Shown here: positions 11,107-51,846 of the stretch, in pieces
How positions within the stretch are numbered: position 1 is the stretch's first letter
Layout: every line of letters starts with the position of its first letter
IMG/VR virus record: IMGVR_UViG_3300032893_000063
Span: 1 to 53,564 of that record
Source of the DNA: a virus
Taxonomy: Duplodnaviria > Caudoviricetes
Direction: 5' to 3' (one strand)
DNA length: 53,564 nt
Notes under the pieces: generated by a model
The model's database searches: none
What the model saw: the letters and a program-made list of their open reading frames with translations, nothing else
What the model was told of the DNA's origin: nothing
Made by a program: the position numbers and the translations under genes

Positions 11107-11151
11107 ATTTGGGTCCTCCGTGAAAGCTGTAAGCAAACGACTGCCAAGAGA

Positions 11152-11159
11152 CTTATACC
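11152..11159 (-). promoter_or_regulatory. Conserved phage promoter GGTATAAG
   Basis: Identical 8-mer upstream of six - strand units. Confidence 0.75.
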
Positions 11160-22131: not shown

Positions 22132-24009
22132 ATGTTAAGCGCCAACGACGGCTCACCAGATGTCGCAAGTCTAGACCCGAACCTTCGCTTAGTAGGCGAT
22201 AGGAACAGGACTCGCTACCCATCACCCTTCTTCGACGTTTCGCAGCAGTATGTCCCGCCCACGATTAAAGAGCTCTTCAAGTGGGTCTATTACTACGCGA
22301 CAAACAACTCCTTCCTTGGCCCGGCTCTTTCCAAGATCGCACGCTACCCGGTCACCGACCTTATCTTAGAAGATAACAATCCCGAGCTTGTTGAGAATTG
22401 GAAAATGCTCCTCAACAACACTCTCCAGATTAAGACGTTTCTCATGGAAACGAATCTCGATCTTGTAACTTACGGGAACGCCTTTGTTACGATTCACTAT
22501 CCTGCGGCACGCTTCATCAAATGCGAAAAGTGTCGCGAAACTTACCCTTGGAAGATGATCCAAAAGAAGATCGATAATCTTAGGATCAAAATCAAATGTC
22601 CCAAGTGTGGGTATGACGGCGACGCCATTATTAAAGACGCGCCCTACAAGTCTGCCGAAAACATCAGACTTGTGCGAATCAACCCAGAATTTATCGATAT
22701 TAAATATAACGACGCAACTGGACGCCACACCTATCTCTATTCAATTCCAGATAAGCTTAAGCGCCAGATTATGAGCGGTGATCCAGACATCCTGGAAGAC
22801 ACACCACAGATTTATATCGACGCAATTAAACAGAGAAAGAAGATTAAGCTCAGTACCCAGAACCTGTTTCATCTAAAGCGCCCCACCCTTGCCGGTAAGG
22901 ACATGGGCTGGGGAATGCCGCTGATTGCGGTAGCGCTGAAGGATCTCTACTACTTCTACACCCTCCGTCGCGGGCAGGAGGCTATCATTAATGAACACAT
23001 CGTACCGTTTGATGTCCTTTTTCCGCAGGCTAACGGAAAGTTTGATCCTTATGTCCACTCCGATCTTTCTTCCTGGAAACGAGAAATCGAAAGACAACTC
23101 GCCCACAGAAGAAAAGACCCTAACTATAAGGCTGTGCTCCCCTTTCCGGTTGGCTTTGAGCGTATTGGCGGAGACGGCAAGGCTCTTCTTCTAACACCGG
23201 AGCTCGACTTCTTAGCTAAGACCATCATTGGCTCTGTTGGCATACCGCAAGAGTTCGTCTTCGGCGGAACCATGAGCTGGACAGGCTCCAGCATTAGCTT
23301 AAGAACCCTGGAGAACGACTTCCTTCACCATCGCTCCCAACTTCTTCAGCTAACAATCTGGCTTGTCGAAAGACTCAGAATCTATCTGAGCATACCGACG
23401 CCAAAGACAATCAAGTTCTCCGATTTTAAGATGGCTGATGACATGCAGAAGCTTCAGCTCTTGATGGGAATGGCGTCAAATGACAAGCTTGATTGGGATA
23501 GCCTCCAAAAAGAGCTCGGCTACGACCCAGAAGTTATCAGAAAGAAAATCGAAGAACAGAAGCTCTTTGAAGCCAAAATGCTTGAGATTCAAACTGTACG
23601 CGCTGCCGAAGCTCAGGCCAAGGCTCAGAAAGTTCAAATGCGCTACATGCAGCAAATGCAAGAAGATGCCGTTGCGCAAAATGCTCAGATGGCTGACCAG
23701 ATGGGCGACGGTCAGGTCCCTGTTCCCGGAGCAGACCCGGAAGGGGAAGCGGCTGACGCTCAGGATAAGACCATCCAAACCTGGGCTAAAAAGTTAGTAG
23801 GACAAGACCCCAATACCCAAGCTCAAGCTCTCGCTAGGTTACACCAGCAATCCCCAGAATTTGCGGCAAAACTCAAACTCGCCATCTCACAACTTTCACA
23901 ACCTCAGATGCCAGAGGTATCGCAAGGACCGGCACAACCCACTCCGCAAGGAGCGGATATGCGCCCGCTTCCAACTCAGAGACCTCCTCGTAGAAAAGGA
24001 GGCGTCTGA
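22132..24009 (+). CDS. Putative portal protein with Zn-ribbon insertion
   Basis: 625 aa; DLVTYGNAFV, LFHLKRP...GWGMP, IGSVGIPQEFVFGG; CEKC...CPKC; Gln/Pro-rich tail. Confidence 0.7.
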   Translation: MLSANDGSPDVASLDPNLRLVGDRNRTRYPSPFFDVSQQYVPPTIKELFKWVYYYATNNSFLGPALSKIARYPVTDLILEDNNPELVENWKMLLNNTLQIKTFLMETNLDLVTYGNAFVTIHYPAARFIKCEKCRETYPWKMIQKKIDNLRIKIKCPKCGYDGDAIIKDAPYKSAENIRLVRINPEFIDIKYNDATGRHTYLYSIPDKLKRQIMSGDPDILEDTPQIYIDAIKQRKKIKLSTQNLFHLKRPTLAGKDMGWGMPLIAVALKDLYYFYTLRRGQEAIINEHIVPFDVLFPQANGKFDPYVHSDLSSWKREIERQLAHRRKDPNYKAVLPFPVGFERIGGDGKALLLTPELDFLAKTIIGSVGIPQEFVFGGTMSWTGSSISLRTLENDFLHHRSQLLQLTIWLVERLRIYLSIPTPKTIKFSDFKMADDMQKLQLLMGMASNDKLDWDSLQKELGYDPEVIRKKIEEQKLFEAKMLEIQTVRAAEAQAKAQKVQMRYMQQMQEDAVAQNAQMADQMGDGQVPVPGADPEGEAADAQDKTIQTWAKKLVGQDPNTQAQALARLHQQSPEFAAKLKLAISQLSQPQMPEVSQGPAQPTPQGADMRPLPTQRPPRRKGGV

Positions 24010-27223: not shown

Positions 27224-27610
27224 TCACCAAGTCAAGCCACTGTTGTAGTGCCTTGAAAACGGATCGCCATAATTTTGATTTGAAGTCTGGGGAGCTGCGG
27301 TCTTGTGTTTAGAAAGACCCTCCGTTGCTGAACTGAGTACTTGATTGCAGATTTCTACGATGAAGTTGAATAGAGAGAGAAGAAGCGCCTTCTTGGTAAA
27401 ATCCCAAAGAACGCCCATGAGCCTCCAAGCCAAGCTTTTAATTTTTTCGAGCCAAGCCCAATTCCTGGTCTTCTTTGCCAGGAAGGCTTGGTTTTCTAAA
27501 CTTCGTGCTGTTCCTAAAAGATCCTTGGCTTCCGCTGCCAGAGTTGGTTTGGTCGCCACCGGTTCTTTGGTAGCCTCCTCAAAGGGGGGACTATCAAAGG
27601 GATTTGCCAT
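27224..27610 (-). CDS. Hypothetical early protein
   Basis: GGAGG RBS before MANPFDS at 27610. Confidence 0.6.
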   Translation of the reverse strand: MANPFDSPPFEEATKEPVATKPTLAAEAKDLLGTARSLENQAFLAKKTRNWAWLEKIKSLAWRLMGVLWDFTKKALLLSLFNFIVEICNQVLSSATEGLSKHKTAAPQTSNQNYGDPFSRHYNSGLTW

Positions 27611-27674: not shown

Positions 27675-27682
27675 CTTATACC
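27675..27682 (-). promoter_or_regulatory. Conserved phage promoter GGTATAAG
   Basis: Same 8-mer; divergent from the RNAP gene. Confidence 0.75.
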
Positions 27683-27720
27683 AACAATGCCTTCTTTTTT
27701 TACTAACTAATTGAAATCAA

Positions 27721-30700
27721 ATGAGAACTTTCTCTGGTCCAGAACAGTTTGATGCGCTCAAGAAAACGGTCGTCGAGTCGTATCAGAAGCTTTTCCCGGT
27801 ACAGAAAGATCCTAACGGAGCAAGTCTCCACCTCAATAAAATCTGGGTGGACGATCAAGCGCTTGACCCACACGACTATGTAGACCAGAAGAAAACCCGT
27901 CTAGCGGGCAATACCTGGGGAGCTCCAGTCTACGCTTCTCTTGAACTTAGAGACGGCACCGGTAAGGTCGTCGATCGCATGGAGAAAGTTCGTCTAGCGA
28001 CTATCCCAAGACTGACCCCACGTGGCTCCTACATCGTAGGTGGAAACGAATACCAGGTTGCTAACCAGCTCCGAATGAAAATGGGTCCTTATGTTGTTCG
28101 TACTCAAAAGGGTGACCAATATAAGGCTGTCTTGAGTCTGGGCGGTGAATTTAATAAGCGTCCCGAAATCCACTTTGACCCTATATCCAATAAATACACC
28201 GCTGTGATCGATCAAAGCAGGATGCCTTTGTACCCCCTCATGCACGCCATGGGAGTAAGTGACGAGGAGATGAGAAAAAACTGGGGTCCGGAGATTTTTG
28301 CAGCTAACCGTGTAGATCCCGATAAATATGTTCTCCGTTTTGCCGAGAAACTGACCAGAACGAAAACAGACAATCCCCAGACCGCTTCTGAAGCAATCAA
28401 GGCTTACGCCAAGACTGCGGTGACCGACCCCAAGGTTTCAGAAGTAACGCTTGGGAAAGCCTACCCGCACCTTCACCCAGGAATGCTTCTTGATACGAGC
28501 AAAAAGCTTTTAAACGTTTATCAGGAAAAGGCAGAACCAGACGATCCGGAAAACCTTCTTTTTAAAGAAGTCCTCTCCGCAGATGATATGTTGAGAGACT
28601 CCCTCTCTCAAAAGCAAAAGGTTAATAACCTTAAATTCATGTTGGCAAGGCACCTCGGTAAGAGGACTGCAATTAAAGACATGATTAACTTTAAGAAGCT
28701 CTCCGCCCCAGTGGAGTACTTCTTTACGCACGATGATCGTGTTTCTACCCCGGAACAGTACAACCCTGTTCACATGCTCTCAGAGACGCACAAGCTTACT
28801 ATGACCGGTACCGGGGGTATTAAAGATCCTCACACGATCATGCCAGAGATTCGTGAGGTTCATCCCTCTCACGTAGGATTTGTTGATCCCGTCCATACGC
28901 CTGAATCCGAAAAGATCGGCGTCATGCTTCATCTTACGACTGGAGCAATGAAAGAAGGGCGGGATGTCAAAACCCCAGTTATCAACACAAGAACTGGAAA
29001 GACAGAGTATCTTACGCCCCTAGAGCTTTATCGAAAGAATGTGGCTTTTCCTGACGAAGCCAAGCTCTCAGACGGGAAAGTCCAGTGGCGCTCTAGTCAG
29101 GTTAAAACACAAAAACTGGGGAAGCTAGGAGTCGTCAAACCATCCGAAGTAGAGTATGTGCTCCCCTCTCAGGCGACTCTTTTTAGCCACTCTACGAACC
29201 TGATCCCCTTTTTACAGAACGATCAGGGAAACCGCGCCATGATGGGCACCAAACATCTTGGGCAGGCAATCCCGCTCGTTGCCAGGGAAGCTCCTCTTGT
29301 TCAAACTGATATTGGGAATGGAACTACATTCCATAAGGCAATCGGAGAGCAATTCTCAGTTCATGCCCCAGTCGATGGTAAAGTAACCAAAGTCACACCA
29401 GATCATATTGAAATCGGAAAGACTAGAATCCCCCTTTACAACGATTTCCCGCTGAACCAGAAGACTTACCTTCACCACGAACCGGTAGTAAAAGTGGGAG
29501 ACACCGTTAGGAAAGGACAGCTTCTTGCTGATTCCAATTTCACTAAGAACGGGACTCTGGCTCTGGGGAAAAATCTTACTGTTGCTTACGTCCCTTATCC
29601 CGGACTTACATTTGAAGACGGCATCGTAATCACCGAAAGCGCTGCCAAGAAGCTCGCTTCTCAGAACATCTATAAGCATACTTTTGAAGTCGAATCCGGA
29701 ACGAGAATGGCTGACTTCAAAAAGTACACTGCTTATTACCCGAATACAGTAAGCAAAGAACTAAAATCCAAGTTCGACGAAGATGGGGTCATCCGCAAAG
29801 GATCGCTTGTTAACCCAAATGATCTTCTGATCATGGGGCTTAAATACGATCTCGCTAGCCCAGAGAATGCCACCCTTCGCAGGATCAACAAAGCTCTCCA
29901 AAAGCCTTGGTCCAATGCTGGGGTGAAATATAAGGGAGAGTTCCAAGGCGTTGTCACCGACGTAGTGAAAAGAGCCGGACAGATCGATGTCTTCGTAAAG
30001 GCAGTCGAGCCTGCAAAAGAATCAGACAAATTATCCGGGGTACACGGTAACAAGGGTGTAATCACTAAAATCCTCCCCGACAATGAGGCCCCAAGATTAG
30101 CCAATGGAACTATTCCAGACGTGCTGCTAAACCCTCATGGCATTATCGGTCGTATTAACCTAGGCCAAATCTACGAAAGTGCCGCATCTAAGATCGCAGA
30201 AAAAACCGGTAAGCCTTATGTAGTAAAGAACTTTTCTGGGGAAAACATAAACGACAAGATCCAAGAAGAGCTTAAAAAGCACGGAATTTCCGACATGGAA
30301 GAGATGATTCTTCCTAACGGGAAATCTATCGGAAAAGTAAGTGTAGGTAAGCCTTATATTCTTAGACTCGCTAAAACAGGCAAGTCCGGATTCTCAGCTC
30401 GCATGCCGATGACAAGCTACGACTTAAACCGACAACCTGTGAAGGGCGGGGAAGAGGGCACTAAGGCTCTGGACCTGATGACTTTCTATTCGATGCTTTC
30501 CCACGGGGCTAAAAAGAACCTGATTGATGCTCACCAGAAGAGCGAACAAAACGACGAGTATTGGCATGCCATCGAAATGGGTAAACCGCTTCCGGCCCCA
30601 AAGCCCACTTTCGCATTTAATAAATTCATTTCGCTTCTGCATGGGGCTGGAATAAATACGGTTAAGCAAGGCCAAGATGTGGTGCTAGCCCCTCTTACGG

Positions 30701-33700
30701 ATGGGGCAGTTAAAAGACTCAGCAATGGGGCTGTTACTGAGCCTGAGTTTCTTTACGGAAAGGATCTCAAAGAAAAGCGTGGGGGATTGTTTGATCCCAT
30801 TACAACAGGCGGAAAGTTTGGAGCCCATTACGCCCATATCGAACTTCCCGCAGCAATGCCTAACCCTGTCTTTGAGAAGGCGATCCGAACGCTCACAAAT
30901 CTTAAGCCAGGCGACTATAACGACATCATTGCCGGACTTAAGCATGTCAACGTGGACGGGGCTGTCTTAAGCGAGCCTGCCAAAAATACTCTTACGGGCG
31001 GTCCTGGTATCTCTAGACTCCTAGGCAGAATTGATATCGATCGCGATCTCAAGACGTTTAAAGATAATCTAGCAAAAGCTAAAAATGAGACTGAGGTAGA
31101 CATCCTCAATCGAAAGATGCGCTATCTTTCTGCGCTTAAGGAACTTAACCTTAAGCCCGAAGAAGCCTACATGAGAAAACTCGTCCCCGTAGTGCCACCC
31201 CAATACAGACCCGTTTACGAAACCCCAAAACAGGGTTTAAGGGTATCTCCGGTCAACTACCTCTACCAGAGCGTGGGACTCCTTTCCAAGTCACACGATT
31301 ACCCAGTCATGAAACTTCTCCCTGAGAGTGAGAAGGCAGAGCTCAACACGGATACGTATAAATCCACAAGAGCTCTTGCTGGACTTGAGCCTGTTCTTAC
31401 AAGAAGTAAGGATCATCCGATTGAGGGCTTCATTTCTCAGATCACCGGATCAAAGCCTAAAAAGGGCTTTTTTATCAGCAAGATCTTGGACCGAAGACAA
31501 GACCTAGTGGGTCGCGGTGTTATTACCGCCGCCCCAGATCTTGACGTGGATGAACTTGGAATTCCTGAAAAGATGGCTTGGAATATCTTCCGCCCATTTA
31601 TCGTAAGAGAATACACTGCGGCAGGAATCGGAGCCGACGTAGCTAGAAAAGAAATCGAGGCTCGTGATTCCAGGGCCAAGCAGATGCTTGAAGCTGCGAT
31701 GAACAAGAGAACCGTCTTGATGAATCGAGCCCCCTCTCTGCACAAATTCTCCATCATGTCCTTTAAGCCCAAGCTGACTGACGGTCTTGCCGTGAGGGTG
31801 CCGCCTCTTGTTTTGAAAGGGTTCGGAGGAGACTTCGACGGAGATGCAGTAACGATCCACGTTCCTACAAGCGACGAAGCTATCAATGAGTCTCGAAAGA
31901 TGTTCCCCTCAAATAACCTTTTTAAGCCGGGGACTGGCGAACTTATGATCATGCCATCTCAGGAAAGCGCTATTGGACTTTATTTCTTATCCCAAAGTGC
32001 TGAGGGTAGGAAAAAGATCAACTCTCTCCTTCCTGATAAGTTTAAGATAGACTCTGAGCTCAGCGCTAAGGCTGCCAGGCAGCTTTATAACAAGATCGCT
32101 AAAGAAGCCCCCAAGGATTACCACAACATTGTTTTTGATCTTAAAATGCTGGGGGATAAGACTGCCTATGAAAAGGGATTCTCAGTTGGCTTAAAAGACC
32201 TCGTCGTAGATACGGGGGTCAAGCAAAAGATCTTCTCAGCCGCAGATAAGAAAGCGGACGAAATTAAAAGAACAACTAAGCCTGGAATCGAACAAGATCG
32301 AAAGGTCTCGGATGTCTATAGCGCGGCTTCAAAAGAGGCTTACGAAACTATCAAGCGGGATTTGAAGGGTAAAAACAATAGCTTTTACCACATGGTTACA
32401 AGTGGTGCTCGCGGTAAGGACAGCCAACTCATGCAGCTACTCTCTGCGCCAGGAGTGGTTGCTGGGGCTAAAGATCGCCCAATTCCCATCCCGATTAAAA
32501 AGTCCTACGCAGAGGGGCTTAACACGAGTGATTACTTTGTTTCTTCTTACGGTGTTCGTAAGGGTATGACCGACCGGGTTCTTCAGACCTCTGCTCCAGG
32601 GGCGCTCAATAAAGAAATCATGGCAAGCACCCTAGATAACATTGTTACGGCTAGCGATTGCGGAACAGAAAGGGGAATCGATCTCCCTACCTCAAGTTCT
32701 GACGTCTACGATCGCTACCTCTCAAAAAGCCAAGCGGGGTTCCCAAGAAATACTCTTGTCACACCACAGCTCATCTCCGCATTGACTAAAAAGGGCGTCA
32801 AAACAATCCACGTCCGGTCCCCTTTAAAGTGCCTTGCGACCAAGGGAACCTGTGCGCATTGTTACGGAATTGACGAGCACGGACAACTTCCTCCAATTGG
32901 AGAAAATATCGGGGCCAAGTCTGGTCAGGCAATCTCTGAGCCGATGACCCAAATGACCATGAAGACTTTCCACACGGGTGGCGTGGCTGGAGAAGCCCCT
33001 GTTGCTAAGGGTTTCGAACGCATCAAACAGCTTCTTGAGATGCCTAAGCACACTGCCGGGGAAGCAACCCTTTCAAGAATCGATGGCCCAGTTACCAAGA
33101 TCGCGCCTGTGGCCACAGGAGGGTACGAAGTTCACGTGGGCACCGAGATTCACAAGGTACCCCCGCAGCGCGAGTTAAAAGTAAAGAAGGGAGACCATGT
33201 CTTGGCCGGAGATGTTCTTTCTTCGGGAGTGATCAAGCCCCAAGAGCTTCTCAAGTATAAGGGAATGCCCGCAGCCCAAAATTACATTGTCGACGAGCTT
33301 CATAAGGCTTATCAGGGGCAGGACATCCCTATGCAACGTAAAATCTTTGAAACCGTTGTGCGCTCCGTTGGGAATCTAACTCGCGTCGTTCATGCCCCAA
33401 AGCACGCTGAATTCAATGTGGGAGATATCATCCCCTACACCACCGCTGTTCACTATAACGAGACCCGGGCAGAAAAACTCCCTGCCTCCGAAGCTACTGG
33501 ATATCATTTACAATTCCCTGTTGGTAACCTCCCGCAATTCCACGTGATTACGGACAAGGACGTTTCTTATCTGAAGGGGATGGGATACAATCAAATAGAT
33601 GTGCTAAAGGAACCGCTCAAGCACGCACCTATTTTGACAGGTATTGATCGACTCCCGATCAATAAGAAAAATTGGATGGCGCAGCTAGGCTATCGCTACA

Positions 33701-33819
33701 TCAAAAACACGCTAACAGACGGAGCTGCTGAAGCGTGGAAAACAAAGTTGCAGGACACCCACCCCGTTCCTGCCTTTGCTTACGGTGCAACGTTTGGGCA
33801 GAAAAAGGAGCACTACTAA
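27721..33819 (+). CDS. Phage two-barrel RNA polymerase, fused beta + beta' polypeptide
   Basis: beta motifs HTPESEKIG, NDQGNRAMMG, DKLSGVHGNKGVI, LNPHGIIGRINLGQ; beta' motifs NRAPSLH, GGDFDGD, SGARG, SYAEGL, EPMTQMTMKTFHTGG. Confidence 0.95.
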   Translation: MRTFSGPEQFDALKKTVVESYQKLFPVQKDPNGASLHLNKIWVDDQALDPHDYVDQKKTRLAGNTWGAPVYASLELRDGTGKVVDRMEKVRLATIPRLTPRGSYIVGGNEYQVANQLRMKMGPYVVRTQKGDQYKAVLSLGGEFNKRPEIHFDPISNKYTAVIDQSRMPLYPLMHAMGVSDEEMRKNWGPEIFAANRVDPDKYVLRFAEKLTRTKTDNPQTASEAIKAYAKTAVTDPKVSEVTLGKAYPHLHPGMLLDTSKKLLNVYQEKAEPDDPENLLFKEVLSADDMLRDSLSQKQKVNNLKFMLARHLGKRTAIKDMINFKKLSAPVEYFFTHDDRVSTPEQYNPVHMLSETHKLTMTGTGGIKDPHTIMPEIREVHPSHVGFVDPVHTPESEKIGVMLHLTTGAMKEGRDVKTPVINTRTGKTEYLTPLELYRKNVAFPDEAKLSDGKVQWRSSQVKTQKLGKLGVVKPSEVEYVLPSQATLFSHSTNLIPFLQNDQGNRAMMGTKHLGQAIPLVAREAPLVQTDIGNGTTFHKAIGEQFSVHAPVDGKVTKVTPDHIEIGKTRIPLYNDFPLNQKTYLHHEPVVKVGDTVRKGQLLADSNFTKNGTLALGKNLTVAYVPYPGLTFEDGIVITESAAKKLASQNIYKHTFEVESGTRMADFKKYTAYYPNTVSKELKSKFDEDGVIRKGSLVNPNDLLIMGLKYDLASPENATLRRINKALQKPWSNAGVKYKGEFQGVVTDVVKRAGQIDVFVKAVEPAKESDKLSGVHGNKGVITKILPDNEAPRLANGTIPDVLLNPHGIIGRINLGQIYESAASKIAEKTGKPYVVKNFSGENINDKIQEELKKHGISDMEEMILPNGKSIGKVSVGKPYILRLAKTGKSGFSARMPMTSYDLNRQPVKGGEEGTKALDLMTFYSMLSHGAKKNLIDAHQKSEQNDEYWHAIEMGKPLPAPKPTFAFNKFISLLHGAGINTVKQGQDVVLAPLTDGAVKRLSNGAVTEPEFLYGKDLKEKRGGLFDPITTGGKFGAHYAHIELPAAMPNPVFEKAIRTLTNLKPGDYNDIIAGLKHVNVDGAVLSEPAKNTLTGGPGISRLLGRIDIDRDLKTFKDNLAKAKNETEVDILNRKMRYLSALKELNLKPEEAYMRKLVPVVPPQYRPVYETPKQGLRVSPVNYLYQSVGLLSKSHDYPVMKLLPESEKAELNTDTYKSTRALAGLEPVLTRSKDHPIEGFISQITGSKPKKGFFISKILDRRQDLVGRGVITAAPDLDVDELGIPEKMAWNIFRPFIVREYTAAGIGADVARKEIEARDSRAKQMLEAAMNKRTVLMNRAPSLHKFSIMSFKPKLTDGLAVRVPPLVLKGFGGDFDGDAVTIHVPTSDEAINESRKMFPSNNLFKPGTGELMIMPSQESAIGLYFLSQSAEGRKKINSLLPDKFKIDSELSAKAARQLYNKIAKEAPKDYHNIVFDLKMLGDKTAYEKGFSVGLKDLVVDTGVKQKIFSAADKKADEIKRTTKPGIEQDRKVSDVYSAASKEAYETIKRDLKGKNNSFYHMVTSGARGKDSQLMQLLSAPGVVAGAKDRPIPIPIKKSYAEGLNTSDYFVSSYGVRKGMTDRVLQTSAPGALNKEIMASTLDNIVTASDCGTERGIDLPTSSSDVYDRYLSKSQAGFPRNTLVTPQLISALTKKGVKTIHVRSPLKCLATKGTCAHCYGIDEHGQLPPIGENIGAKSGQAISEPMTQMTMKTFHTGGVAGEAPVAKGFERIKQLLEMPKHTAGEATLSRIDGPVTKIAPVATGGYEVHVGTEIHKVPPQRELKVKKGDHVLAGDVLSSGVIKPQELLKYKGMPAAQNYIVDELHKAYQGQDIPMQRKIFETVVRSVGNLTRVVHAPKHAEFNVGDIIPYTTAVHYNETRAEKLPASEATGYHLQFPVGNLPQFHVITDKDVSYLKGMGYNQIDVLKEPLKHAPILTGIDRLPINKKNWMAQLGYRYIKNTLTDGAAEAWKTKLQDTHPVPAFAYGATFGQKKEHY

Positions 33820-34295
33820 TGTTTTCGGAAGGCTTCGAAAAATCAGCAGCGGTAAGGGAAGTGGGAAGAGCCGCAGGTAAATTTGTTTCTGCCCCATTCA
33901 AAGCTTTGGGGGCCGCAGGATTAGAAGCAGCACGGGGAGCTCGTCGGGGTGCCAAGGGTTTCGCCGAAGGTTTGGCTTCTGGATTGCCCATGAAAAGACT
34001 CTCACCCTCTATGAAAGTAAAGCCAGAGCGCGGGGCTGGATTGGCTTATAAGCACGTTTCTAGAGAAGCACGCCAGGGTAAACTGCCTGTCTCAATGCCA
34101 ACTGCTTATAAGTTCGAAAAGGAAAAAGTTCAGCAGAAGATGAAGGAGAGACTGAAGAAAATCAAAGAAGGCCCATCCTTCGTTTCCAAGCATCCCCTTC
34201 TTTCTGCTGTTGGAGCCTACGCAGGCTATAAGTACCTTACGTCACCTTCTGATGATAAGACTCCTGAGCCACAGGTTTATAGGCCATCTTACTAA
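33819..34295 (+). CDS. FxxGFxKTA-family basic protein
   Basis: TAATG-coupled start MFSEGFEKSAA. Confidence 0.65.
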   Translation: MFSEGFEKSAAVREVGRAAGKFVSAPFKALGAAGLEAARGARRGAKGFAEGLASGLPMKRLSPSMKVKPERGAGLAYKHVSREARQGKLPVSMPTAYKFEKEKVQQKMKERLKKIKEGPSFVSKHPLLSAVGAYAGYKYLTSPSDDKTPEPQVYRPSY

Positions 34296-34297
34296 TC

Positions 34298-35035
34298 ATG
34301 TTTACTGACGGCTATGAGAAGACCGCAGCCAAAGTAAAAAAGAAATCTGAGCAAAGGCCAGATCCTAACGCTCGTCCCCATCTTCTCTATCCTGCTGTCC
34401 CAGAGAATTTCGATGGGTGGCCAGATAAGACTGCTCAGCCTGTAAATTTCAAAGGAATCCGTATCCCCGGAACTACGTCAGTTCCAAAGGTACCCTCACT
34501 TCAGCCCGCTATGAGAACAGCCCCGCCCAGACAACCCCACATGGCGGCAACAAAAGTGGGACTACCTCAAGCACAAACGCAACCCTCAATGAAGCCTTTG
34601 CCTACCGCGCCTCACGCGAGCGCTATTGGCAAACCACCGGGAGCACTTCCTCCAGGTGTATCTGTAAAAGACCAATTCGGAAGAATGAAAACGGGTGCTG
34701 TCGGATCTCAGTTTGCAAAGCCCCCGCAGTTGGGGTTGCCTAAGGCGTGGCCTATTGGTAAACCAATTACGCCCAAACCACGAAACCCAATCTATACTCC
34801 AGCGGCACATTTGAAAGACGAATTTGGAAAGGTAAAAGATCTCCCCGCCAATATCCCCATGCCAACTAAGGTTGCGGCAGCAAAACCAGTGTTTGGAAAG
34901 ATGAAGGCAAAGCCGCTTCTCTCCACTTTAAGAGAAGCGTTTGTTGGACCCCAATTGCAGACTGAACCATTGGGAGCGACAATGCCAAACCAAGGTACGG
35001 GTGGCGGCATCACCGGAGGATATGGATCAAACTGA
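34298..35035 (+). CDS. FxxGFxKTA-family Pro/Lys-rich protein
   Basis: MFTDGYEKTAA. Confidence 0.65.
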   Translation: MFTDGYEKTAAKVKKKSEQRPDPNARPHLLYPAVPENFDGWPDKTAQPVNFKGIRIPGTTSVPKVPSLQPAMRTAPPRQPHMAATKVGLPQAQTQPSMKPLPTAPHASAIGKPPGALPPGVSVKDQFGRMKTGAVGSQFAKPPQLGLPKAWPIGKPITPKPRNPIYTPAAHLKDEFGKVKDLPANIPMPTKVAAAKPVFGKMKAKPLLSTLREAFVGPQLQTEPLGATMPNQGTGGGITGGYGSN

Positions 35036-35243: not shown

Positions 35244-35390
35244 CCCCAATGCCTCAAACCTTCGTGAGCAGCACCCCTTTCGGGGCCAGACTCGCTAGGG
35301 TTTGAGGTAGGGCCTTAGCCTAAGACCCCGCATTATCCACTCCATCGGACGCTGGCGGGTAAAGAGATAAACATATCTCTTCCTCACTTA
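35203..35390 (-). ncRNA. Candidate structured small RNA (~180 nt)
   Basis: Own GGTATAAG promoter and terminator, four consecutive hairpins, only short mini-ORFs. Confidence 0.5.
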
Positions 35391-35391
35391 T

Positions 35392-35399
35392 CTTATACC
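35392..35399 (-). promoter_or_regulatory. Conserved phage promoter GGTATAAG
   Basis: Same 8-mer. Confidence 0.65.
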
Positions 35400-36592: not shown

Positions 36593-37009
36593 TCAGAACG
36601 GAATGTCGTCATTTGCGGCAGCTCCGCCTGCAGCCGGAGCCGCAGAAGCAGCAGCGCCTGCAGCCGCAGGCTTCCCGGCACCCGCTCCGCCCAGGAACTG
36701 AACCCGATCAGCGACGATCTCGGTGGTGTAATTCTTCTTCCCTTCCTTGTCGTCCCACTGGCGAGTCTGAAGGCGACCCTCGATATAGACCTCGCGACCT
36801 TTCGAGAGATACTGCTGGCAGAGTTCCGCAGTCTTATTCCAGACCACGATCTTGTGCCATTCCGTCTTCTCCTGCTTGTTTCCAGATTTGTCCGTCCAGT
36901 TCTCATTGGTTGCAATACTGAAGTTCGCTACAGCAGCCCCAGCCGGTGTATAACGCACCTCCGGGTTCTGCCCCAGCCGACCAATAAGAATCACCTTATT
37001 TACACTCAT
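36593..37009 (-). CDS. ssb: Single-stranded DNA-binding protein
   Basis: [30 protein letters not shown]-terminal DDIPF. Confidence 0.95.
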
Positions 37010-37075: not shown

Positions 37076-37237
37076 CTACGGATCAACGATCAACACCATA
37101 GCAGCGCCTAGGATCATTGCCGCAAGAATATCGAAGGGAATCCCAACGCCTCCTGCAACAACCAGGATTAAAGCGCCTGACCCAACTACTTGAGCCATCT
37201 TCTTTTTTCCTGTTTTGGAGGGCCTACTTCCGTTCAT
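37076..37237 (-). CDS. 53-aa two-TM membrane protein (not in ORF track)
   Basis: GGAGG RBS; MNGSRPSKTGKKKMAQVVGSGALILVVAGG...; first gene after the promoter. Confidence 0.6.
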   Translation of the reverse strand: MNGSRPSKTGKKKMAQVVGSGALILVVAGGVGIPFDILAAMILGAAMVLIVDP

Positions 37238-37260
37238 GGATAAGTCCTCCTTCCAGAGAG

Positions 37261-37268
37261 CTTATACC
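37261..37268 (-). promoter_or_regulatory. Conserved phage promoter GGTATAAG
   Basis: Same 8-mer. Confidence 0.75.
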
Positions 37269-37317
37269 AAAGAGAGGGAACTTTGTTCCTTTTAGTTTTG
37301 CTGTTATGATTGGGAAT

Positions 37318-38451
37318 ATGGCAATAGAAAAGAGCCCTTACGAGGGGACTTTCGATTCCCTAAATGGCCGCGCAGCTCTAGGTCGCGTAGTTGACGTAGA
37401 CGTAACTAATCGACGTTGCCGAGTAAAAACGCTAGGGATGCAATCCCCAAAACTAATGTCGGGCAAGGGAACGGGAACCGGTACCGATGACCACGACATC
37501 CCAGATGTACAATGGATCACCACTTCCGCAAGCGACGCAGGTGCCGAAGATACTTCTATTCCCCAAGTAGGGCAGCTTGGAGTTTTACTCTACATCAATC
37601 ATGAGCCGTATCTTATCGGCTTCTTCAGAGCACTTCAGCCGCAAGGAACAGGAGAAGAATCTGGTCCGCTAGAGGACCTGGTCACTCAAGGTGATCGCAT
37701 TCTTACAACGATCGGCGGAAATAGTGTCATTCTAAGATCTGGTGGGTCCGTTGAAGTTAAAAGCACGGCTCTATGTCGCACTTACTGGCTACCCTCTAAC
37801 ATCCTCTCATCTGTTTGCCAGGAGTGGGAGCTTTCCACCGACGGAGGTTTTACTCAGTGGGTGAGAGATAAGACCAATAACGACACGCTTCTTGAATTCT
37901 TTATCCAAGATAATCAGCAACCCACAAATTGTATTGATCTTCAGCTAGGAAATTCTGATAACGGGAACACCCTAGATTTCGTTATGGGTGAGGTGGACGG
38001 AGATACGTTTGATTTCGTATCTCAGAAGATCTCGCTTTCCATTGATCCTGACGGAACCCTGACTGTGAATGTAGGGATCGGGAATAAAGCGACGCTGGTA
38101 ATTGATGCAAATACTGGCGATACGACATTTACCACTCAAGGTAATCTTACTCAAACCGTCCAGGGGAATGTCAGCCAAACTGTGCAAGGAAACGTCACGC
38201 AGAATGTGACCGGGGATGTGTCAGCCACGATCAGCGGCAAAATGTCTTCAACCGTAACCGGAGAAGTGGACATCACTACAAGTGCAGATGCGACCATCAA
38301 AGCAAGTGGGACCGTAGACGTTGAGGCTCCAAAAATAAAATTAAACGGAGAAGCTTCCGGGGTAACAACCGCCAACTCACACCAGGGAGTTATCGACTTT
38401 ATTACCGGAGTCCCTGTTTTGCCTAGCGAAACCACTTATTCCGATATCTAA
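37318..38451 (+). CDS. Baseplate central spike (gp5/gpV-like)
   Basis: N-terminal OB-fold (GRVVDVD...CRV...PQVGQ) and C-terminal VQGNVxQT octapeptide beta-helix; start moved to MAIEKS. Confidence 0.8.
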   Translation: MAIEKSPYEGTFDSLNGRAALGRVVDVDVTNRRCRVKTLGMQSPKLMSGKGTGTGTDDHDIPDVQWITTSASDAGAEDTSIPQVGQLGVLLYINHEPYLIGFFRALQPQGTGEESGPLEDLVTQGDRILTTIGGNSVILRSGGSVEVKSTALCRTYWLPSNILSSVCQEWELSTDGGFTQWVRDKTNNDTLLEFFIQDNQQPTNCIDLQLGNSDNGNTLDFVMGEVDGDTFDFVSQKISLSIDPDGTLTVNVGIGNKATLVIDANTGDTTFTTQGNLTQTVQGNVSQTVQGNVTQNVTGDVSATISGKMSSTVTGEVDITTSADATIKASGTVDVEAPKIKLNGEASGVTTANSHQGVIDFITGVPVLPSETTYSDI

Positions 38452-43504: not shown

Positions 43505-45127
43505 ATGAGCGGACTAAGTATCGAAAAAGAGTTCCTAAAGAACGGGGACGTTAAGACTAAACTCAAAGCTCTGAAGACAGATTGGATCTCTAGGCTTGTC
43601 TACCTCGACGGGAAACCCTTTAGCTTTAGCGGTCGCAACTATCTTCTTCCAATCTATAACAATCCCTCATCTCGTAAGCTTTTAATGTGTGGTCGTCAGG
43701 TTGAAAAGACGACTATGCTTGCCAACGAAATCATTATCAGTTCGGTCATTCAGCCCTACTATAAAACCCTCTATGTTAGTCCGAGCCATAGCCAGACCAG
43801 AGCTTTTTCAAACCAGAAGCTCAAGCCATGGATTACGGACTCTCCTATTATTTCGAAATACTTCCAGTCATCCAAGATTTCTCAGCAGGTTTTTGAGCGT
43901 GGATTTACAAACGGGAGTTTGTGTTTTTTAAGATCAGCCTTCCTTACCGCCGACCGTGTTCGTGGTCTTTCCTCCTACATGCTTTGCTTAGATGAGCTCC
44001 AGGACTTACTCACTTCTAATATCCCGGTCATTGAAGAGTGCCTCTCCCACGCACCCAACCCGATTGAAATCATGTCAGGCACCCCTAAGAGCCTAGAGAA
44101 TCCCATCCAGCTTTACTGGGAGGGTTCTAGCCAATGTGAATGGCTTGTTCCGTGTGATCACCACACGCCCGTTTACTACAACTACCTCGATGAGCAGAAT
44201 ATAGGACTTGATGGACCCATATGTAAAAAATGCGGGAATCCCATCGATCCGGCAAGGGGACAGTGGGTTGCCTTTAGCAGTGAAAGAGAAATCATGGGCT
44301 ATAGAATCAGCCAGCTCATGGTTCCCTGGTATCAGGACCCCAGAAAGTGGAAGGAACTCGTCTGGAAAAAAGAGAATCTTTCTAAGGGAAGCCTTTATAA
44401 CGAATGCTTGGGAATCAGCTACGACTCCGCAAGTAAGCCCATTACTCGGGCGGAACTCATCTCCTGTTGCTCAACCAAACATCAGTTCTGCCACCGCCCA
44501 ACTCAGTTTACTAATCGTGTTGAGCTTTTTGCTGGAGTAGATTGGGGTGAAGGAACAGACGGGACCGAGCGAGGGGCCAAGGGAAAGATCAGAAACGCGT
44601 CTTACACAGTTCTCGCCATTGGGCTTTATCTTGATCAAAAGCACTTTCATTATCTCTACTATAGACGCTTTGAAGGCAAGGATGCTCTCCCAGGTAACTG
44701 TGTGAATGAGATTATTCGAATCTGCAAGGACTTCCGCGTGAAGTGTATCGGAGCTGACTGGGGTCATGGGTGGGGAGTAAACGAAAGACTTGAAGAGGCT
44801 TTTGGTACCACGAGAGTGATTAAGTTTCAGCACGTGGGAAACCAGAGACAGCGCAAGAAATACGACGAAATCGGGCACAAGTTTCAGCTAGCTCGAAACG
44901 AAGTCATCACCGATTTCATCATGGATATCAAAGACCACAAGATCGTTTGGCCCGATTGGGAACACGTAAAAAATTATCTTTGCGATCTGGAACATATTTA
45001 CTGCGAATATAAAGAGGCTACTCGACAGATGGTCTATGACCACAAGCCCAGCGAACCCGACGATGCACTTCATGCTTCGATCTACTGCAAAGAAGCGGCG
45101 GATAACTATTACGGGAAGCAGCGATAA
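43505..45127 (+). CDS. terL: Terminase large subunit (GpA-like)
   Basis: GRQVEKTT Walker A, LCLDE Walker B, SGTPK, CDH...CKKC, AGVDWG nuclease, PDDALHA. Confidence 0.9.
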   Translation: MSGLSIEKEFLKNGDVKTKLKALKTDWISRLVYLDGKPFSFSGRNYLLPIYNNPSSRKLLMCGRQVEKTTMLANEIIISSVIQPYYKTLYVSPSHSQTRAFSNQKLKPWITDSPIISKYFQSSKISQQVFERGFTNGSLCFLRSAFLTADRVRGLSSYMLCLDELQDLLTSNIPVIEECLSHAPNPIEIMSGTPKSLENPIQLYWEGSSQCEWLVPCDHHTPVYYNYLDEQNIGLDGPICKKCGNPIDPARGQWVAFSSEREIMGYRISQLMVPWYQDPRKWKELVWKKENLSKGSLYNECLGISYDSASKPITRAELISCCSTKHQFCHRPTQFTNRVELFAGVDWGEGTDGTERGAKGKIRNASYTVLAIGLYLDQKHFHYLYYRRFEGKDALPGNCVNEIIRICKDFRVKCIGADWGHGWGVNERLEEAFGTTRVIKFQHVGNQRQRKKYDEIGHKFQLARNEVITDFIMDIKDHKIVWPDWEHVKNYLCDLEHIYCEYKEATRQMVYDHKPSEPDDALHASIYCKEAADNYYGKQR

Positions 45128-49692: not shown

Positions 49693-49700
49693 CTTATACC
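49693..49700 (-). promoter_or_regulatory. Conserved phage promoter GGTATAAG
   Basis: Same 8-mer. Confidence 0.75.
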
Positions 49701-51696: not shown

Positions 51697-51838
51697 TGCT
51701 TTTCCTTCCCATACCTAAAGAACCCACAAACACAAAAGCCCCACCGCATAGACTTCAGCAGCAGGGCTCTCGCTTGTGATTCGGGAATTGGATACTGCAA
51801 AATAGAGGTGTCTAAAATGATACCTCTATCTCAAACAT

Positions 51839-51846
51839 CTTATACC
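51839..51846 (-). promoter_or_regulatory. Conserved phage promoter GGTATAAG
   Basis: Same 8-mer. Confidence 0.75.

Follow-up and report, generated by a model that had tools for sequence, protein, structure and literature searches.

What kind of transcription enzyme does a tailed-phage genome fragment from a wetland encode when both large subunits of a cellular-type RNA polymerase (RNAP) appear to lie in one gene, and when and from which promoters would such an enzyme work? The fragment, called the window here, has 53,564 bases, is registered as a virus in IMG/VR and has an estimated completeness of 34%. Its plus-strand open reading frame (ORF) at 27721-33819 comprises 2032 codons and a stop, with no internal stops in its translation. 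Pfam domains of beta (Rpb2_3, residues 345-409; Rpb2_6, 578-909) occupy the N-terminal part and are followed by domains of beta' (Rpb1_2, 1321-1394; Rpb1_4, 1525-1583; Rpb1_5, 1599-1777), all above gathering scores. An earlier note had proposed that this single frame holds both catalytic subunits in minimised form, and the frame and the domain order bear this out. Judged by its sequence, the ORF does encode a beta-beta' enzyme in a single chain, reduced in comparison with bacterial cores. The reading we favour as a whole, with slightly better than even confidence, is that of an active multisubunit-type RNAP of a phage lineage, which would use its own sigma, be packaged in the virion and transcribe early genes from GGTATAAG promoters.

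The window is collinear with the initial ~50 kb of a relative, G001 (182,359 bases, estimated completeness 100%), whose RNAP orthologue is 81% identical to the window protein over its full length. Anatomy was assigned with a profile from 34 family members aligned to the Salmonella rpoB-rpoC locus; mean column identity in these members was 52% across the 2032 residues. Profile positions 846-984 match the C-terminus of beta and positions 999-1036 match beta' residues 29-66. In the multiple alignment, the end of beta (...LLHGAGINTV / ...FNKFISLLHGAGINTV) directly abuts the beta' start (KQGQDVVLAPLTD...), so there is no linker. The junction (30652-30690, +) was placed by this alignment, the family HMM positions and the representative matches that span it. 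The beta-like part covers residues 1-981 (27721-30663, +). With 2032 residues, the chain is shorter than the compact Brevibacillus pair (1181 + 1205, 2386 residues) and the Salmonella pair (1380 + 1407 as annotated, 2787 residues), in agreement with the earlier claim of a reduced size. Compared with the Brevibacillus pair, 26 N-terminal residues and 91 residues of beta (284-374) are lost, as are 41 residues at the junction and, from beta', the 32-residue Zn ribbon, stretches of 19, 55 and 34 residues and 20 C-terminal residues. The large Salmonella-specific inserts are likewise missing. The bridge helix is kept, and counterparts of the clamp helices and the flap tip can be aligned. A clade-specific tail ending in ...PVPAFAYGATFGQKKEHY (33757-33816, +) stands in place of the bacterial beta' C-terminal segment, and its terminal Tyr is also found in Salmonella phage Arash and Vibrio phage D69.

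The fused gene is widespread. At least 120 relatives with 39-85% identity were found in protein databases, mostly 1985-2119 aa long, with contigs reaching 186 kb. When a 301-residue segment spanning the junction served as query, 487 representatives (50% clusters) matched at E <=1e-30; all of the 150 best representatives spanned the junction in one stretch, and 110 of these were at least 1900 aa long. Members of 3000-4739 aa were also among the representatives matched. A nucleotide search with the RNAP gene against 50,697 phage records gave zero matches. A protein search matched 72 phage records, in which the only cultured full-length relatives were Vibrio phages D181, D148 and D69 and Salmonella phage Arash (29-33% identity). 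Query cover of at least 80% was otherwise reached by Enterococcus and Staphylococcus 'phage' records; these lack annotation, are 26% identical and probably represent bacterial DNA. The best PDB matches were bacterial beta' chains (E 1e-106), and all 60 of the matches listed were annotated as bacterial-type beta or beta', a label under which a jumbo-phage chain could also stand. The protein scored far below the NCBIfam cut-offs for rpoC (498.7 vs 963.5) and rpoB (NF001616, 343.3 vs 896), and likewise for the fused rpoBC models NF007172 (481.1 vs 5372) and NF011417 (410.8 vs 4632).

A tree of 43 rows and 1940 columns (quick LG+G4 search, SH-aLRT support only) compared phage sequences with 19 bacteria from at least six phyla, the latter chosen among the best tblastn loci. 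The sampling was limited to phages and bacteria, without Archaea, Eukarya or giant viruses. All 19 bacteria fell on one side of a branch with an SH-aLRT support of 100. Twenty family members formed a clade with Arash and D69 (support 99), the family itself had a support of 94, and the YerA41/Carin-5 phage group was placed on a separate long branch. The window lies outside the sampled bacteria, so a grouping within bacterial rpoBC, which the earlier note had named as a refutation, was not borne out. The same tree bears on the idea that a cellular rpoBC fusion was mis-binned into a viral contig. Fused bacterial rpoBC genes do exist, as two NCBIfam equivalog models and a 2281-aa ORF in a Paceibacterota metagenome-assembled genome attest. 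Against this idea, the window gene is flanked by portal, baseplate and terminase genes, and the Paceibacterota fusion sits inside Patescibacteria. Furthermore, in a scan of 185,579 species genomes, the best 80 of 599 confirmed loci (from at least 600 matched stretches) were all ordinary bacterial rpoB-rpoC with 25-30% identity; a prophage copy could have been overlooked beyond these 80. We regard mis-binning as hardly conceivable.

Other unusual polymerase genes came to light in these searches. In the Paceibacterota contig (L032, 172-7017), the single 2281-aa ORF spans rpoB and rpoC, and since it nests within Patescibacteria it represents an independent cellular fusion. Cobetia phage Carin-5 (L108, 1020-7845) and Yersinia phage GN1 (L109, 1015-7741) carry an operon with a small sigma-like gene and with genes for beta (~1085 aa) and beta' (~926 aa), both of them unsplit; their group branches long, away from both the bacteria and the window's family. 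Rhizobium phage RHph_Y65 (Kleczkowskaviridae; L016, 8161-11544) has a lone 1127-aa beta'-like gene that adjoins a DNA polymerase gene and matches window residues 1232-1754 at E 3e-63; the stretch shown has no annotated beta gene.

Could such a trimmed chain be active? The catalytic motif of the window protein reads GGDFDGD (residues 1369-1375; 31825-31845, +), and the 34 aligned members have NADFDGD as their consensus, with variation in the window's subclade. Among the 120 listed relatives, the motif was NADFDGD in 44, GGDFDGD in 19, NADVDGD in 12, NADIDGD in 9 and GADFDGD in 5, besides rarer others. NADxDGD was present in 71, the Asn was missing in several ways in 30, whose frames are all full-length and open, and a contiguous motif was missing in five (one 1140-aa beta-only piece and four proteins with intein domains). 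The cultured phage Arash has AADYDGD, without an Asn before the Asp triad. The change to GGDFDGD described earlier is thus present, but it is not a trait of the enzyme as such: from the distribution of motifs, it is a derived state of one subclade.

The broken NADFDGD motif, together with the lost Zn ribbon, might mark an inactive relic or a structural protein. The corresponding Asn458 has been termed universally conserved in cellular RNAPs (PMC7862312), and NADxDGD served as a quality criterion in the mReC survey of phage polymerases (PMC7481178). In E. coli RNAP, however, the substitution N458S is reported to lower sugar selectivity less than 5-fold, Arg425 being the main determinant (PMC7862312), and the Arg425 counterpart is kept in the window protein. 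The three Asp (D1371, D1373 and D1375) are invariant in 34/34 aligned relatives, as are the Gly of the motif, the NRAP Arg, D769-K770 and the second GNKG Lys (K778). Both catalytic Lys of HGNKG are kept in the window within DKLSGVHGNKGVITKI (residues 765-785). In the trigger-loop counterpart (residues 1735-1757; 32923-32991, +), Q1744 and H1751 are invariant among the aligned members and the window also keeps M1747. The mean column identity given above, the full-length frames of the 30 relatives without Asn and the Arash motif likewise argue against a relic, which we consider very improbable. The Gly-Gly in place of Asn-Ala would then be a change tolerated throughout the subclade, leaving the enzyme active.

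The two Zn sites were as the earlier note had described them. The segment GGLFDPITTGGKFGAHYAHIEL aligns to the beta' N-terminal Zn-ribbon region, where a 32-residue gap removes all four Cys (residues 1022-1045; 30784-30855, +), and the identical gap occurs in 34/34 family members and in Arash. The second Zn site (C1647, C1704, C1711 and C1714; 32659-32862, +) is invariant in 34/34. The counterpart of rifampicin cluster I (residues 334-369; 28720-28827, +), in which we take the rifampicin-contacting residues to lie, is heavily substituted in the alignment to Salmonella and Brevibacillus beta, so the window RNAP is expected to be, and probably is, insensitive to rifampicin. Intein or LAGLIDADG domains were seen in many family RNAPs of 2355-2945 aa (P0006, P0010, P0013, P0021, P0058, P0081, P0087, P0089, P0109 and others). 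The four intein-bearing members without a contiguous xxDxDGD suggest an intein in or beside the catalytic loop, and in these the intein domains may interrupt the catalytic motif.

Does the chain have partners? Neither a sigma nor an alpha match came from 17 neighbouring ORFs searched against Pfam, ten of which were also compared with PHROGs, and the window contained no match to Sigma70_r2, RNA_pol_L or RNA_pol_A_bac. Complete relative G001 has a single beta/beta' locus and no match to RNA_pol_L or RNA_pol_A_bac, for which the controls were positive in 14/14 genomes, nor to Sigma70_r2 or Sigma70_r4. A PF00940 search of G000-G002 gave no match either, but is uninformative, as its control was silent everywhere. 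At 160,438-161,292, however, G001 encodes a 284-aa homologue of the Arash sigma protein gp10 (34% identity, E 2.5e-19), on the structural strand and flanked by genes for homologues of gp6 and gp13, two virion proteins of Arash. This protein scores 25.4 for Sigma70_r3 (gathering score 25.3). The profile of its family matched sigma factors in 44 of 47 PDB matches (E <=1), with RpoS as the best (1e-7), and the alignment covers sigma regions 2.3 to 4.2. There are 117 database relatives of the sigma-like protein, and in at least 11 cases such a relative and a fused RNAP have longest contigs of equal size. One of them, an 86-87% identical copy (P0122), is on an 88,718-base contig, which is the size of the longest contig of P0001, a protein identical to the window RNAP. 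The earlier statement that no alpha or sigma gene is adjacent therefore holds for the neighbourhood but not beyond it: by these matches, the lineage has its own divergent sigma-70-family protein, the gene of which is far from the RNAP gene.

Co-folding of RNAP residues 985-1335 with P0122 gave an ipSAE of 0.82 (median of three runs), compared with 0.46 for the best control; the mark applied to co-folds is reached by 58/80 solved complexes and 2/110 mismatched pairs. The runs shared at least 60% of their contacts, and the partner had a pLDDT of at least 67. Contacts were predicted on RNAP residues 1173-1215, which belong to the beta' clamp-helices counterpart (residues 1168-1225; 31222-31395, +), the predicted docking site of the sigma-like protein. 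This arrangement mirrors solved sigma-beta' complexes; the predicted docking may therefore reflect likeness only and is no proof of binding. Arash encodes a second, canonical sigma (gp196), a homologue of which was not found in G001. In G002, a relative with 60% identity, a 174-aa ORF (G002:C1:71451-71570, -) has a weak Sigma70_r4 score of 22.8 bits (cut-off 24.1), and could be a second, small specificity factor on the early strand.

The sequence GGTATAAG is a candidate promoter element. The window contains six sites, all on the minus strand, where 0.78 were expected, and six were reached in 0/100 shuffles. Five are intergenic among the called ORFs; the sixth is within a TTG-started ORF (37117-38451) that is probably over-extended. 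The sites (11152-11159, 27675-27682, 35392-35399, 37261-37268, 49693-49700 and 51839-51846) are aimed at minus-strand genes of early type, for example an SSB gene (36593-37009, -; Pfam SSB, E 2e-44) downstream of the site at 37268. The site at 27675-27682 is in the 50-bp gap 5' of the RNAP gene and points away from it, towards a minus-strand ORF (27224-27610). From the gene's place on the late strand, the earlier note had suggested a virion-packaged enzyme that reads these promoters. The sites are indeed enriched, but all of them stand on the minus strand before early-type genes and none on the late strand, a placement that fits a packaged early enzyme. Among 17 pooled sites of the window and G001, a block AAAATACCC was found 9-10 nt 5' of GGTATAAG. 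Examples on the window's minus strand are 11114-11159, 35354-35399 and 51801-51846, with a weaker AG(G/T)C further upstream, and the AAAATACCC-GGTATAAG spacing is unlike that of a standard -35/-10 pair.

The strand bias recurs in relatives. On the minus strand were 10 of 11 sites in G001 (expected 1.5), 2/2 in L004 and 4/4 in L005. In Arash (OQ632216.1), 30 of 31 sites were on the strand of early and DNA-metabolism genes, with 1.35 expected (analytic first-order expectation; Poisson 8e-30), and the control, the pattern read backwards, gave 2 and 3 sites. Arash sites (loci L012, L027, L013 and L014) often extend as GGTATAAGtaaagtgtaa, with a Shine-Dalgarno sequence ~20 nt beyond. The word 'promoter' does not occur in the main text of the Arash paper (PMC10585845). 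The unrelated phages Carin-5 and GN1 showed no enrichment of GGTATAAG. A hairpin promoter like that of phage N4, formed from TACC...GGTA, was ruled out, as the stem would have only 4-5 bp and the loop 9-11 nt.

These sites might also be read by a hybrid enzyme, in which the phage chain takes the place of the host's own beta and beta' and joins host alpha, omega and/or sigma-70, with sigma-70 recognizing GGTATAAG. In favour of this, searches of the phage detected neither an alpha nor an omega gene, the chain still has its flap-tip and clamp-helix regions, and GGTATAAG has TATAA preceded at two bases by a G, which resembles an extended -10 element. On the other hand, GGTATAAG ends in G and not in the conserved last T of the sigma-70 -10 hexamer, and one and the same 8-mer is in use in both a wetland phage and a Salmonella phage. 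An enzyme that travels in the capsid could not depend on host alpha for its assembly, the conserved bacterial beta' C-terminal segment is replaced by the clade-specific tail, and the co-occurrence of a dedicated sigma-family protein with the fused RNAP in at least 11 cases (by matching contig sizes) also speaks against the hybrid. We judge it improbable.

The gene's surroundings and the cultured relative suggest a packaged enzyme. The RNAP gene is among plus-strand structural genes. Upstream is a portal protein homologue (22132-24009, +; 28% identity to Arash gp204, E 6e-76), and downstream are a baseplate hub/lysozyme-like gene and the large terminase subunit gene TerL (43505-45127, +; 28% identity to Arash gp1, E 5e-64; Pfam GpA_ATPase 40.6 bits). 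Ten neighbouring ORFs searched against PHROGs and Pfam gave the baseplate hub/lysozyme-like match and otherwise none. In Arash and D69, the portal gene is followed by one small ORF and then the RNAP gene; in the window, a few small ORFs, some on the minus strand, are between the two. In virions of Arash, mass spectrometry is reported to have detected gp206, the larger RNAP piece, with 3516 spectra (the most of all proteins), the second piece gp216 with 1210, the sigma gp10 with 467 and the major capsid protein with 1333 (PMC10585845). Semi-quantitative arithmetic on these published counts gives similar spectra per residue for gp206, gp216 and gp10 (2.0-2.3). Both the RNAP and the sigma-like genes are on the structural strand. 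From a ~30%-identical homologue in Arash virions and the conserved gene order, we infer that the window enzyme is probably carried in the virion. The packaging proposed in the earlier note is supported to this extent, by homology to the top virion matches gp206 and gp216.

The genes around the RNAP start and stop have features of their own. Upstream of the RNAP start codon (27683-27720, ..ctaattgaaatcaaATG) no Shine-Dalgarno sequence was recognisable. The next ORF (33819-34295, +; 158 aa, N-terminus MFSEGFEKSAA, no family match) has AAAAAGGAG upstream, and its ATG overlaps the RNAP stop (TAATG). It is followed by a 245-aa Pro-rich ORF (34298-35035, +; N-terminus MFTDGYEKTAA). The tag to which the earlier note refers is an N-terminal motif, MF-x-x-G-F/Y-x-K-x-A-A, that both downstream ORFs have in common; it could be a targeting or processing signal. 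The G001 counterparts (28568-29044 and 29050-29475) have the N-termini MAFADGFKKEAA and MFTVGFLKEAA. Directly 3' of gp216, Arash gp217 (141261-142679) is an SNF2-type helicase (Pfam E 5e-21) detected in virions (PMC10585845), and in phiKZ-type phages an SNF2 helicase is described as linked to RNAP genes (PMC7824862). A gp217 homologue was not found in G001.

Taken together, these observations led us to the following hypothesis. In the alignment, lineage-specific inserts, the beta' Zn ribbon and part of the beta lobe have been trimmed away, and the enzyme would need neither alpha nor omega. Promoter specificity would come from a dedicated, divergent sigma-70-family protein that is encoded in the structural block of the same phages and docks on the retained clamp helices. 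The RNAP and the sigma-like protein would be synthesized late alongside the head proteins, enclosed in the capsid and delivered by injection, whereupon minus-strand early and DNA-metabolism genes would be transcribed from GGTATAAG-based promoters. The sharper version, a packaged holoenzyme of only two polypeptides (a chain free of alpha and omega plus the dedicated sigma) that recognizes a GGTATAAG promoter ending in G and has no need of the Asn, is put forward tentatively, at somewhat less than even confidence.

Several points weigh against the favoured reading. The tree has a narrow bacterial sampling, many of its rows were flagged for odd composition and two are only half filled. The 53.6-kb window does not contain the sigma-like gene, nor was this gene found in G002, which is 73% complete. 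D69, the sister of Arash, is not enriched in GGTATAAG (3 forward and 6 reverse sites, backwards control 7 and 4), so the motif is not clade-wide, and because GGTATAAG contains a -10-like TATAA, host sigma-70 holoenzyme could read the sites. A single polymerase whose own gene is on the late strand also does not account for transcription of the late genes. The window phage is known from sequence alone, and the virion data from Arash have a second reading: ribonucleotide reductases, RNA ligases and a helicase were detected as well, and the Arash authors allow for carry-over of abundant proteins (PMC10585845). Per residue, gp206 has about half as many spectra as the major capsid protein, a high value for an enzyme that is packaged.

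These virion data could therefore also fit a non-packaged RNAP, serving middle or late transcription inside the cell like the non-virion RNAP of phiKZ-type phages, with carry-over as the source of the Arash signal. Plainly non-structural enzymes in the virion preparation, spectral counts implausibly high for a minor internal protein and a single polymerase locus in G001, which may have to serve all phases, are in keeping with this. Yet the adjacency of portal and RNAP genes is conserved in three lineages at ~30% protein identity, the RNAP gene is on the structural strand and lacks its own GGTATAAG site, and the similar spectra per residue of gp206, gp216 and gp10 are, semi-quantitatively, as for a stoichiometric complex. 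We consider a non-packaged enzyme unlikely, and a packaged early enzyme is retained as the favoured reading.

How does this enzyme compare with known systems? The closest cultured system is that of Arash and its Vibrio relatives. Arash gp206 and gp216 form a clade with the window's family (SH-aLRT 99) and share the fusion of beta to the N-terminal half of beta', the 32-residue Zn-ribbon deletion, the missing Asn, the tail ending in Tyr and a portal gene just upstream. The portal, terminase, capsid and sigma-like genes are homologous, and GGTATAAG is on the early strand. The identity of the Arash, D69, D148 and D181 enzymes to the window protein is only 29-33%. Moreover, the Arash and D69 enzymes come in two pieces of 1525 aa and ~606 aa, with a cut C-terminal of the catalytic domain (query ~1425-1433), whereas the window enzyme is uncut. 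Judged by the ends of NCBIfam models, this cut is at the cyanobacterial rpoC1/rpoC2 boundary. In Arash, 9 genes lie between the pieces; in the Vibrio phages, small ORFs or a homing endonuclease intervene. Arash further differs in its second sigma, gp196, and D69 in the absence of GGTATAAG enrichment.

The window's family is likely to be the published mReC lineage, as far as sequence features allow this to be judged. The survey describes 97 metagenomic Caudovirales contigs with beta and beta' that branch outside the cellular ones and RNAP genes amid phage hallmark genes (Weinheimer and Aylward 2020; PMC7481178). As in mReC, IMG/VR or metagenomic phage contigs carry cell-alignable beta and beta' that branch outside Bacteria. 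The window RNAP is a complete ORF of at least 800 aa matching both beta and beta' profiles (Pfam and NCBIfam served as proxy for COG0085 and COG0086), it branches deeply relative to the sampled Bacteria, and it is flanked by portal, baseplate hub/lysozyme-like and TerL genes. Inclusion in the survey needed the NADxDGD motif (PMC7481178), so the window enzyme with its GGDFDGD would be excluded. The main text of the survey treats beta and beta' as two subunits and at no point states a fusion, and its capsid calls, in 8 of 97 contigs, were all of the Gp23 type PF07068 (PMC7481178). The capsid protein of the lineage studied here does not seem to be of that type. PF07068 gave no match in G000-G002, an uninformative result as its control was silent everywhere; the G001 capsid homologue has no Pfam capsid match, and the Arash major capsid protein matches PF05065 weakly. 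TerL PF03237 scored 23.3 bits in G001 (cut-off 22), and 13.4 and 11.8 bits in the window.

Phages of the phiKZ/AR9 type also encode two-barrel RNAPs related to cellular beta and beta' that have no alpha, with one early set packaged (PMC7824862, PMC7598289). Those enzymes consist of 4-5 polypeptides in two paralogous sets and use no sigma factor (PMC7824862), whereas the window's family has one chain, one locus (in G001) and a sigma-family partner. PHROG RNAP families matched at E 1e-33 to 4e-6, compared with 1e-106 for bacterial beta' in PDB. The earlier distinction from the split phiKZ-type RNAPs is in line with these results, which put the enzyme closer to bacterial ones. The bacterial fused RpoBC proteins (NF007172 and NF011417, which we take to represent Helicobacter and Wolbachia) share the head-to-tail order of beta and beta' in one ORF, but their models have ~2840-2890 positions and are cellular, and the window gene is a phage gene. 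Virion-borne, early-acting enzymes are also known from crAss-like phages. In crAss-like gp66, YonO and the tape-measure-fused RNAP of P23-45, both barrels are likewise in one polypeptide. The P23-45 enzyme is described as virion-borne and early-acting, and these RNAPs are reported to be too divergent for cellular beta/beta' models (PMC7481178). Unlike the window enzyme, which keeps the flap, clamp helices, bridge helix, trigger loop and second Zn site, they miss most accessory domains. The N4 virion RNAP, a large enzyme that travels in the capsid and, once injected, transcribes early genes, is T7-like and single-subunit with an unrelated fold (PMC7824862); the likeness proposed here is one of function only. 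Passages in reviews of jumbo-phage RNAPs describe split or YonO-like enzymes or are silent on fusion (PMC7824862, PMC7598289, PMC13282480). In the literature outside subscription journals and supplements, no account of a phage RNAP with beta and beta' fused in this manner was found.

The fused family is large and barely studied, and the sigma-like gene, the clamp-helix co-fold and the distribution of GGTATAAG across relatives are new with respect to the earlier note. Cellular-type RNAPs are thought to need an alpha dimer for assembly and an unchanged NADFDGD motif. The family suggests that both rules can be relaxed, as G001 is alpha-free and 30 of 120 relatives are without the Asn, with a sigma-family factor apparently still in use; the motif criterion of the mReC survey would have filtered out a whole subclade. 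Packaged with its sigma, such an enzyme would add to the virion RNAPs of N4 type and phiKZ type a third way in which phages transcribe early genes independently of the host. A single-chain, sigma-guided and probably rifampicin-insensitive RNAP with a short promoter would be a tractable minimal model of transcription initiation and a possible orthogonal expression tool. If the two-polypeptide version is true, it would be the simplest sigma-dependent cellular-type RNAP known, present in hundreds of phage lineages and with a cultured relative in Arash.

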